DNA of 8,544 bases from a virus (lineage: Duplodnaviria; Heunggongvirae; Uroviricota; Caudoviricetes), in the IMG/VR virus record IMGVR_UViG_2602041669_000023; one strand, written 5' to 3'. Position 1 is the first letter of the stretch; each line of letters begins with the position of its first letter. A program made the position numbers. Below are positions 3,001-6,000 of the stretch, piece by piece.

Positions 3001-6000
3001 TGGAGAGTAAATATCTTGCGCAATATGGAGAGATAATTGGCTCGAGTCTGAGATATCGTGGCTATATCCCAGAAATAAGCCTTGTGAGTAATCATCTCTG
3101 TTTTCATGTTTATTGCCATAAATATCATTAAGTATTGGTTGAAACTTCCCTGCATCATCATTTGCTAATGATAATGCAAGGCTGTTCGCGATAGCTGAAC
3201 ACGTGGTAAATGACAGAGCAATAAAGACGCCAGCGATGACACTTTTTTTCATATGTTATTGTCTTCCTTTTTTTTGAATGGTGCGCGTATTTTACATACA
3301 TGAGTTTGTAATACAAGGTGCGTAATCAATATGATGTTTTATAATTGCGTGAGACAATTGATTTATTCGTTTTTTATTGCGGTTTTTATTATCTTTTAAT
3401 GTAACGGTGTTTTTATTAAGTGTGTTTGCGTGGTGTTTTATGTTTTTTATAATTTTTATTTTATTAAATTTAAAAGCATTAGTAATGGCTATTCTATATA
3501 GCAATATAAGAACTGTTACAAAAAAAGGGGGGGGCAATTACAGGTAGTTATGGATGATGAGTGAAACAGATATTGGAGAACCGGGGAATGAATGATGTCT
3601 GAGTCTTATATATCAGAACTCCTTCGCTGTCGCTGGGGGCTCGTGTGCTTATGTCGTTTCCCCGATTCGGTTTTGAACGATTACCGAATGTTGAAGAATT
3701 ATGCCAAAATATAGAAAGGATTTACTGCATGAATACCCAATATTTACAGTATGTTCGTGAGCAACTTATGGCAGCTACTGCTGACTTGAACGGAGCAACG
3801 AAAGGCCAGCTCGAAGCCTGGCAGGAGCATGCACAATTTGATACTGGTACATACAAACGAAAGAAGCCGCGCATTCTGGATGTGGTAACTGGCAAGATGA
3901 TTACGCTGGATAATACGCCGACTTCCGGTAAGCAGTCGTACGCAAAAGGTTCATCCATTGCTTTGGTCAGCCCGGTTGAATTCTCAACCTCTTCATGGCG
4001 CCGCGCGGTTTTGTCTCTCGATGAACATCAGAAAGCATGGTTGCTTTGGTGTTACAGCGAAAGCGTTCGATGGGGGCATCAGGTCACCATAACGCAATGG
4101 GCATGGAGCGAGTTTAAAGATTTGTTAAGTAACAGAAAAATTGCAGGTAAGACACTGGATCGCCTGAAGACGTTAATCTGGCTGGCTGCACAGGATGTGA
4201 AGAGCGAACTTGCAGGGCGTGAGGCCTATGAATACCAGACACTGGCATCATTGGTGGGAGTGACAACAAAAAACTGGTCCGAGACATTTACTGAACGCTG
4301 GGTTGCAATGAAGCACATTTTTCTACAGCTTGATAGTGATGCTTTATTGCTTGTGACGAGAACACGTTCAAAACAAAAGGCAGCATTTTTACAGCAAAAT
4401 ATTGCAAAACTGGATTAAAAGCCATATACTTCATGCAAATTTGGTATGTTGTAAAAAATGTATAAACCCGCTGCCGAGTGGGTTTTTTTTATGCCCTGAG
4501 TTGTACTTGTACGGTAAACATGCTGGCTGCTATGTAATAGAGTTTTTTTAGCCTGTAACCTCTTGACGGCATTGAATTGCTTTTGTTATGAGTTGTAAGC
4601 CAATGTTATCATCTTGTATTGGGGTGGTTATGAAGGATGGTGCGCTGCTCAGGAGTTCTTCACTTTTTATTGCCTACATGGGATGCCTTGGATGGGGGAG
4701 TGCTTATTTCTATGGATGGGGTACTTCTTTTTACTACGGCTTCCCATGGTGGATTGTAGGTGCAGGTGTTGATGATGTTGCCAGAAGTTTATTTTTTGCA
4801 GTTATCGTCATTGCTATATTTCTTATCGGTTGGGGTATTGGTGTTGTATTCTTTTTCGCAGTGAAAAGAAAACATTCTATGCAAGAGCTAAATGTATTTC
4901 GCCTTTATTTTGCTGTGGAATTATTGTTTGTGCCGGCAATTATTGAGTTTTCTATATTGAGACAGAAGATTCAGGTACCTCTTTTGCTACTGTCAGCAGC
5001 GATTGCGCTGGCGGTTACAATTTCGATAAGATCTTATGGGCGATTTTTATCGGTATCATGCTTCTATGATAAGCCATTTATAAAAAAACATTTTTTTGAG
5101 ATTGTGATGATTGCTTTTGTGGCATATTTCTGGCTTTTTTCATTTCTGACAGGATATTACAAACCACAGTTTAAGAAAGAATATGAAATGATTAATTATA
5201 ATGATGGTTGGTATTATGTTCTTGCTCGTTATGATAATTGTCTGGTTTTGTCTACTTCTTTCAATGCAGGTAGTAAAAGGTTTGTCATTTATCAATCAGC
5301 ACAAGATAAGAATCTTCAGGTTGATATTGTAAGGACCAGAATTTAATTGGCTGCATAAATAATATTTTAAGTTGCAAGTTGGCTATTCGTAGGAATAGAA
5401 CCTTAGGCATGCTGAATGCGTTTTCTGAACATTGTTTTATAAACTGTGTCTGCTTGCTGTTGTGATCCTGCTTTTAGTGATGGTGATGATGGATTTCACC
5501 AGCAGGATAATGTTGGTACTGACTGATGGCGCTCTGGTCTGCGGCATTGTGGTATTGCTGTGGCCGATGATGAAAGAACAGAATGAATAATTCTTGACTT
5601 TTTTGTTTACTGTTTATTAAAAAATCAACCGCATGGTGAATCCTCCTTGGAGGGGCTAAATGATCGAGTTTTAAGGGCACGTAGCGAGTTCTGTTTGATC
5701 ATTGCAGAACTTAGCGGGAGGCGCCATGCGTACATCACTAATGTTATTTCCTTCTATCATTTTCCTTGTGAGTTCTGGCTGCGCATGGCGCGGCCTTTTT
5801 TTTATGACCTGCCACTGGCAGATGGTCATCCTGTGATTTGATTCCGGTTCCGGCTTTTTAACTCTGTTCCTGTACACGGGAGAAATTCTATGTCGATTAA
5901 TCGTTATGATATTGGTTACAAGAAGTACCACGTATTGTGTTGAGATAGAAAGCATGGTGCCAGAGGTAAATGCAGCAGCATAATAAAAAAGAGCCAGCGC

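Follow-up and report, generated by a model that had tools for sequence, protein, structure and literature searches.

The small hydrophobic open reading frame (ORF) occupying positions 5432-5590 of a stretch of the Caudoviricetes record IMGVR_UViG_2602041669_000023 from IMG/VR (8,544 nucleotides analysed as a whole and referred to hereafter as the window) corresponds to an already known gene: it is the same as tciB of phage 434 and as RefSeq WP_000499454.1, a member of the DUF3927 family and a piece of ordinary phage cargo. Taking all of the evidence together, we assign a probability of about 0.8 to the explanation that the ORF is a copy of TciB/DUF3927 whose product would act at the membrane and which has lost both the canonical partner of the family, the TerB-domain gene tciA, and its Shine-Dalgarno (SD) sequence. 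The copy borne by the window would then be an orphan, and possibly a vestigial one.

Identity, start codon and coding status of the small ORF

The open frame encoding LFYKLCLLAVVILLLVMVMMDFTSRIMLVLTDGALVCGIVVLLWPMMKEQNE ends at position 5590 of the plus strand, and the product of the ORF terminating there is that of WP_000499454.1 ("DUF3927 family protein"), exactly this 159-nucleotide coding sequence being annotated in an identical strain. Searches of Pfam yielded a match to PF13064 (DUF3927) over residues 7-50, with a score of 53.0 bits relative to a gathering cut-off of 25 and an E-value of 3.4e-14, while PHROG 1470 ('TciB-like') was matched with 63.4 bits and a search of NCBIfam returned nothing above cut-off and only a spurious 16-bit match. 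The same ORF was found by tblastn in phage 434, where it is annotated as TciB, and in phage 2B8. Its length of 52 residues fits that of the small, single-domain proteins of the DUF3927 family (about 45-60 residues), the signature of which consists of a basic N-terminus (K/R at positions 4-6) and of the motifs V-D-F-T-S-(R/K), S-V-L-x-D-G and W-P-x-x-K. K4, D21-F-T-S-R25, D32-G33, W44-P45 and K48 are all present in the window ORF; its lineage has lost R6 (replaced by C) and S28 (replaced by L).

The first-pass annotation of the window had described an ATG-initiated ORF of 57 codons at positions 5417-5590. The end of this ORF and its peptide from the sixth residue onward proved correct; its ATG start and its first five residues (MVFLT) did not, the frame at 5417 reading TGC GTT TTC TGA, the last of these codons being a stop at 5426-5428. 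The longest ORF actually present has 52 codons and opens at the TTG at 5432, the first NTG that follows a stop in this frame. The ATG at 5416-5418, the only one nearby, is probably that from which the longer version was started. It opens a mini-ORF of eight codons in another frame (5416-5442, plus strand, ATG to TAA, encoding MRFLNIVL) that overlaps the TTG and stops 6 nucleotides past it; judged from this layout, a coupling of termination on the mini-ORF to reinitiation on the small ORF is conceivable. The SD had been described as weak, and indeed no usable SD is present: with a duplex energy of +0.4 kcal/mol to the anti-SD sequence, it is absent rather than weak. The corresponding energies are -6.4 kcal/mol for homologues of the MTVKL type and -3.3 kcal/mol for those of the P1 types. 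The portrayal of the ORF as a small and very hydrophobic membrane-protein gene, co-oriented on the plus strand with a membrane-protein gene upstream, was borne out by its membership in DUF3927 and by a grand average of hydropathy (GRAVY) of 1.47.

Since the window contains 96 ORFs of at least 30 residues in 8.5 kb, the size of this one is in itself unremarkable, and the initial description had left room for an artefact of GTGATG-rich sequence. A chance ORF, devoid of coding significance and arising from GTGATG-rich and T-rich sequence, would be compatible with this abundance of ORFs and with the expansion and contraction of the hexamer repeats seen in alleles P0011 and P0062. It is countered at the level of the family. 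When ORFs extracted from about 230 related loci were subjected to coding tests, ratios of non-synonymous to synonymous substitution rates (dN/dS) calculated between subfamilies over codons 2-48 by the method of Nei and Gojobori (NG86) ranged from 0.25 to 0.41 in the annotated frame, compared to 0.5-1.4 in the +1 and 1.5-2.6 in the +2 frame, and a six-frame control found the sense frame alone to be free of stops in all six lineages compared. Because of these ratios and of the exclusivity of the open frame, DUF3927 is a genuine coding family under purifying selection; frame conservation and Ka/Ks, the check named in the first-pass annotation, gave a positive outcome for the family. The ORF at 5432-5590 itself stands above chance because of its homology to DUF3927 and PHROG 1470 and because its frame is the only open one shared. 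With 126 representatives at 50% identity displaying the same motif in addition to the E-value given above, the chance-ORF reading is effectively refuted and retains next to no likelihood.

These 126 representatives, nearly all of them 40-70 residues long, were obtained from an exhaustive hidden Markov model (HMM) search; a profile search retrieved 359 proteins, with hardly any originating outside Escherichia, Salmonella and the phages of these genera. About 14% of complete E. coli genomes (751 of 5,426) encode members of the family, the median being 6 copies per genome, and the annotation given is always DUF3927. A first scan of viral contigs gave 80 near-identical copies, and the MTVKL and P1 variants were then queried for diversity; a scan of genome contigs with the family alignment gave two loci only, both from metagenome bins. 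Its members are hydrophobic, nearly all-helical proteins of about 50 residues, which travel as accessory cargo ('morons') on lambdoid prophages and on P1-like phage-plasmids in Enterobacteriaceae. Some alleles vary in length. Four from E. albertii (P0030, P0048, P0066 and P0071) bear, within the second hydrophobic segment, an insertion of one to three in-frame tandem units of seven residues (GGWRLEA or a CGIVGLWD variant), and in the E. coli alleles P0011 and P0062 the VM repeat encoded by GTGATG hexamers is expanded by 2-3 residues. In both species, this repeat-driven variation falls inside a putative transmembrane helix.

The TerB-paired module and its remodelled copy in the window lineage

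A TerB-domain gene, tciA, is located directly upstream of tciB in all 82 loci of the MTVKL type, all 26 of the P1 type and all 38 of the P1b type (146/146), as well as in the single divergent locus L229 (1/1); the tciA product matches the TerB family of Pfam with 56 bits. The stop codon of tciA overlaps the start codon of tciB, the overlap consisting of GTGA in the lambdoid MTVKL type, where the GTG is found 8 nucleotides after a GGAG, and making use of an ATG in P1-like elements. Pairing with TerB is likewise seen in P0214, the most abundant E. coli variant (about 1000 contigs), and in a Salmonella phage-plasmid variant. Above-threshold matches to the small RNA (sRNA) STnc100 follow tciB in loci L244 (149 bits) and L089 (101 bits). 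The canonical unit is thus tciA-tciB-STnc100, with tciA and tciB translationally coupled; in lambdoid phages it fills the interval from Q to the lysis genes, and in P1, tciA-tciB is located in the C1-controlled ban operon. Within such a module, TciB may partner or anchor the soluble TerB-domain protein at the membrane, possibly in a Ter-like envelope-stress or exclusion function. In loci L244 and L245 (1-3941), from other E. coli prophages, a TfpB-like gene of the type found in the window is followed by a 65-residue ORF, an N6/N4 DNA methyltransferase gene, two tRNA genes, tciA, tciB, STnc100 and a P21-type holin gene; in L246 and L247, a ParE toxin/helix-turn-helix pair is present between the methyltransferase gene and tciA.

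The window subtype, the product of which starts with MFYKL, lacks TerB upstream in all 86 loci (0/86). Its usual upstream neighbour is the TfpB-like membrane-protein gene, present in 74 of the 83 window-type loci having at least 900 nucleotides of upstream sequence. The first-pass annotation had suggested that the small protein might be a partner subunit of this neighbour, which would imply that the two are co-translated and assemble in the membrane. The genes are co-oriented and 85 nucleotides apart, a terminator scan found no terminator between them, and the pairing extends to phage 434. Yet the 74 loci repeat one and the same arrangement with hardly any change, and a DUF3927 ORF was found in none of 13 loci representing four diverged lineages of the TfpB family (all HMM E-values above 2). 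All other DUF3927 subtypes pair with TerB, and in L244 the TfpB-like gene stands apart from the TerB-DUF3927 pair, with the methyltransferase and tRNA genes in between. The conserved partner of the family is a TerB-domain protein and not the neighbouring membrane protein, the juxtaposition of the TfpB-like gene and DUF3927 is, among the loci compared, specific to the window lineage, and we consider a TfpB-like partner very unlikely.

What sets the window lineage apart is the region preceding the conserved part of the ORF. Similarity to tciA-tciB loci, as detected by blastn, starts only at about position 5441, corresponding to codon 4. Since homology begins at this codon and the spacer upstream bears no resemblance to tciA, the ancestral SD and start (both formerly inside tciA) and the first three codons have been replaced in this lineage, a change shared with phage 434. 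A simple deletion joining the 3' flank of the TfpB-like gene to tciB was considered and rejected, the 85-nucleotide spacer matching neither the TfpB flank nor tciA elsewhere. A rearrangement took out tciA, the SD and the original GTG or ATG start. The part from codon 4 onward was thereby joined to unrelated sequence in which, by chance, an in-frame TTG without SD is present 85 nucleotides downstream of the TfpB-like gene. Divergence from the MTVKL subtype amounts to about 33% of nucleotides in the first 20 codons and about 12% in the rest; mosaic alleles exist, and part of this divergence may reflect recombination rather than drift. Carried on a Q-dependent late message, the resulting orphan would be poorly initiated.

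Several observations weigh against a functional membrane protein in the window. The ORF is devoid of a competent initiation region, having a TTG start, no SD and no translational coupling. Changes polarised with outgroups along the window lineage comprise 11 non-synonymous and 3 synonymous ones, a ratio compatible with neutrality (P = 0.50), and include GTG to TTG at the start and the losses of the conserved R6 and S28. The window-type copies in 671 records share at least 99% identity, and the intactness of the ORF is for that reason weak evidence of selection. No TerB-DUF3927 fusion protein that would back a physical interaction was found among the family matches; the longer matches that might have been taken for such fusions (P0250, P0294 and P0311) were dismissed as chimeric or frameshifted gene calls. 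Hydropathy resolves two hydrophobic stretches (residues 5-20 and 26-44) parted by DFTSR, compatible with a putative two-transmembrane topology; AlphaFold2, in contrast, returned one continuous helix over residues 2-51 (predicted local distance difference test score, pLDDT, of 91) with no turn, a model that neither shows nor excludes a hairpin. Finally, the searchable literature yielded no experiment demonstrating translation of any TciB or its function, no mention of WP_000499454, and DUF3927 only in a figure legend.

Many of the same observations would be expected of a decaying remnant, the codons of which went untranslated after the loss of tciA, SD and start, and which persists owing to the recent spread of the segment. 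Not all of the data fit this view, however. No nonsense or frameshift allele was found among 185 loci and 10 haplotypes, and recombinant C-terminal tails remain in frame. Events within the subtype (4 synonymous versus 3-4 non-synonymous) lean toward constraint, if not significantly so (binomial P of about 0.08-0.12), the 11 lineage-specific replacements are all uncharged and mostly hydrophobic, such that the hydrophobic character of the protein is kept throughout, and the start region, rich in A and U, shows no more structure than its canonical counterpart. We regard a remnant as a serious prospect, somewhat short of an even chance, and the odds as roughly even that the copy is a weakly expressed protein rather than a remnant in decay. 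That the orphan should still be translated, through AU-rich, S1-dependent initiation or through reinitiation from the mini-ORF, and have acquired a TerB-independent role involving the TfpB-like protein, the timing of lysis or the expression of the downstream PasD/STnc100-like sRNA, is on the whole unlikely, even with these three candidate roles taken jointly.

If translated, the orphan TciB copy would probably insert in the inner membrane as a helical hairpin with both termini inside and the DFTSR turn outside; the basic residues at the two ends of the protein would then face the cytoplasm and the conserved Asp-Gly pair of the second helix would be intramembrane. Small size, a hydropathy as high as that reported above, and a position in the late operon about 620 nucleotides upstream of an S21-type holin gene might also suggest a toxic small membrane peptide, similar to type I toxins, or a holin- or antiholin-type modulator of lysis. 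Searches of Pfam, NCBIfam, PHROGs and PADLOC revealed no match to a holin or toxin family, however, and neither an antisense promoter nor an antitoxin-type RNA was detected over the ORF. In P1 and its relatives, moreover, the gene is part of the C1-controlled ban operon, a long way from the lysis genes, and the conserved operon partner is TerB; a toxin or lysis modulator thus strikes us as highly improbable. PADLOC returned no defence match, be it for TciB, for the TfpB-like protein or for either TciA protein.

Taken alone, the gene carries little weight: its family has a name in both Pfam and PHROG, and it is annotated already in phage 434 as well as in hundreds of E. coli genomes. The value of the present analysis is in part corrective, the start codon and length first given to the ORF having been wrong. 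It also indicates that the annotation of the widespread copy of enterohaemorrhagic E. coli (EHEC) and phage 434 as a functional TciB, with neither partner nor translation signals, deserves caution. That a family found in about one in seven complete E. coli genomes came up in no functional study represents a real but modest gap. The gene appears to be dispensable, since P1 tciB is non-essential by CRISPR interference (PMC10695390) and phage 434B is viable without the whole segment, which is replaced by DLP12 DNA (PMC9119081).

Layout of the window and neighbouring elements

The window belongs to a lambdoid prophage of the EHEC/phage 434 type, of which it covers the late-regulatory and lysis region. 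NinG/RusA-type genes, an LpxR homologue, Q, a tR'-like terminator, the TfpB-like gene and the small ORF are followed by genes for a P21-type pinholin, a signal-arrest-release (SAR) endolysin, Rz/Rz1 and a Rha regulator, and by the start of an NleG gene (Table 1). Since Q and the tR'-like terminator are located upstream, the small ORF would be part of a Q-dependent late transcription unit, ahead of the lysis cassette. It occupies a 'moron' slot, running from Q to the lysis genes, which is the constant location of DUF3927/TciB in E. coli genomes and which also holds stx, nanS-p and the Pas/STnc100 sRNAs.

Table 1. Coordinates of the small ORF, its parts and the neighbouring elements in the window.
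Feature	Position	Strand	Description	Basis
TciB/DUF3927-family ORF	5432-5590	+	52 codons, TTG start, TAA stop at 5588-5590	ORF list, RefSeq, Pfam, PHROG
Hydrophobic segment 1, residues 5-20, LCLLAVVILLLVMVMM	5444-5491	+	Includes the GTGATG-rich run	Hydropathy, codon table
DFTSR motif, residues 21-25	5492-5506	+	Family signature between the hydrophobic segments	Alignments, diverse representatives
Hydrophobic segment 2, residues 26-44	5507-5575	+	Conserved D32-G33 (5525-5530), W44-P45 (5561-5566) and K48 (5573-5575)	Alignments, hydropathy
Stretch first taken as N-terminus (MVFLT)	5417-5431	+	Noncoding in that frame: TGA at 5426-5428, no ATG at 5417	Translations, sequence
Lineage-specific junction	5347-5440	.	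85-nucleotide spacer and first 3 codons; no detectable similarity to tciA-tciB loci	blastn, alignment, anti-SD energies
TfpB-like (PF27470) polytopic membrane protein	4630-5346	+	Intact; start probable; ORF open from 4588 (252 residues)	Homologue lengths, ORF list
Q antiterminator and tR'-like terminator	3645-4485	+	Q at 3645-4418 (Phage_antiter_Q, 306 bits); terminator at 4464-4485	Pfam, terminator scan
STnc100/PasD-like sRNA gene	5601-5806	+	Full-length Rfam match of 37.7 bits, below threshold (gathering cut-off of 47); terminator at 5777-5795 and T run
P21-type holin	6212-6427		Directly before the endolysin	Pfam

Translation of the TfpB-like protein probably starts at M15 of the longest open frame (position 4630, preceded by GGGGTGG), since its homologues are 237-238 residues long. 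The assignment to PF27470 ('TfpB') comes from a precomputed annotation; the local copy of Pfam gave no match, PHROG 1521, to which the protein belongs, is of unknown function, and the 'TfpB' of the literature is an unrelated pilus ATPase. An AlphaFold2 model of the protein (pLDDT of 56) was too poor for a fold search. Diverged members of the family are found in what are 'moron' slots (L231-L243): directly after phage Q in Yersinia, next to eltAB (encoding the heat-labile (LT) enterotoxin) on plasmids of enterotoxigenic E. coli and, in Salmonella, alongside a Sif/lipase effector gene. In strain 7-54 11A, the Prokaryotic Genome Annotation Pipeline (PGAP) flagged the gene as 'frameshifted' (L001 5202-6000, equivalent to 4548-5346 of the window). 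The flag was traced to the expansion of a short tandem repeat (AYFWHISGIFLAYFWHISGIFL) in that strain and was set aside as not applicable to the window, where the expansion is missing and the gene intact.

The sRNA-like element starts 11 nucleotides after the stop codon of the small ORF, extends over 206 nucleotides up to a strong intrinsic terminator and is preceded by TTGACT-16 nt-TATTAA. Its sequence shows 98.8% identity to that interval of phage 2B8 in which a 2026 preprint places pasD. The preprint describes PasD as structurally homologous to STnc100, links it to Q, LpxR and Esr41, and reports that Esr41 is often found near PasD (10.64898/2026.05.13.724894). Q, LpxR and Esr41 are all represented in the window, Esr41 only by a weak match (32.3 bits relative to a gathering cut-off of 102, E-value of 4e-4) at 5983-6072 of the minus strand, accompanied by a terminator. 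This match is located inside a hypothetical ORF of 132 residues (5671-6069, minus strand; WP_012578864.1) for which no Pfam or PHROG family was found. In the phage 434 record, a 'putative membrane protein' of 62 residues is annotated over the sRNA stretch, which is probably an sRNA gene instead.

Two further genes of the window are prophage-borne cargo of virulence type. One, at 2293-3252 of the minus strand between the nin region and Q, encodes a homologue of the lipid A 3'-O-deacylase LpxR (Pfam, 137 bits); the other, of which only the start is included (8113-8544, plus strand), lies downstream of the Rha regulator gene and encodes a type III secretion system effector of the NleG family.

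Comparison with known systems

The Tci name rests on homology only, the P1 record labelling 'Tci' (tellurite/colicin resistance/inhibition of cell division) as assigned 'by homology', and no ter phenotype for tciAB was found in the literature searched. The pairing of TerB with the membrane protein TerC in the ter operon is the origin of the 'tellurite / colicin / phage inhibition' label. Much like the tciAB pair, the ter operon of IncHI2 plasmid R478 and of the TAI island of E. coli O157 (the tellurite resistance- and adherence-conferring island) combines a TerB-domain protein with an integral membrane component (PMC9603915). TerC bears no relation to TciB in either sequence or size, and the window, unlike these systems, has no TerB component.

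TciB of phage P1 (YP_006541.1) belongs to the same Pfam family as the window product, is of similar length (54 versus 52 residues) and shares 42% identity with it, the alignment being gapless over 48 residues and retaining K4, D21-F-T-S, D32-G33, W44-P45 and K48. Its gene is the second of tciABC, its ATG overlapping the stop codon of the TerB-like gene tciA and its coding sequence being followed by tciC (35 residues). Whereas P1 tciB is part of an early, C1-repressed operon, the window copy has neither tciA, tciC nor SD, starts with TTG and is found in a late operon. The canonical lambdoid modules (for example L089, L244 and P0214), like the window copy, lie downstream of Q and ahead of the lysis genes and are followed by an element of sRNA type; over codons 21-48, they differ from the window by only about 12% of nucleotides. 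Upstream of tciB, in contrast, they have a TerB-domain gene of 143-153 residues with the GTGA overlap, where the window has unrelated sequence.

The closest counterpart is TciB of phage 434 (UMO75333.1, CPT_434_69), to which the window product is 98% identical by tblastn when the TTG start codon is counted as a mismatch. As in the window, it is encoded by a TTG-initiated ORF of 52 codons with Q, the TfpB-like gene and the sRNA-like element as neighbours, and positions 4419-5440 of the window differ from phage 434 at one of 1022 positions (99.9% identity). The two part company downstream, a sialate esterase gene separating tciB from the holin gene in phage 434, whereas the window proceeds straight to the holin region.

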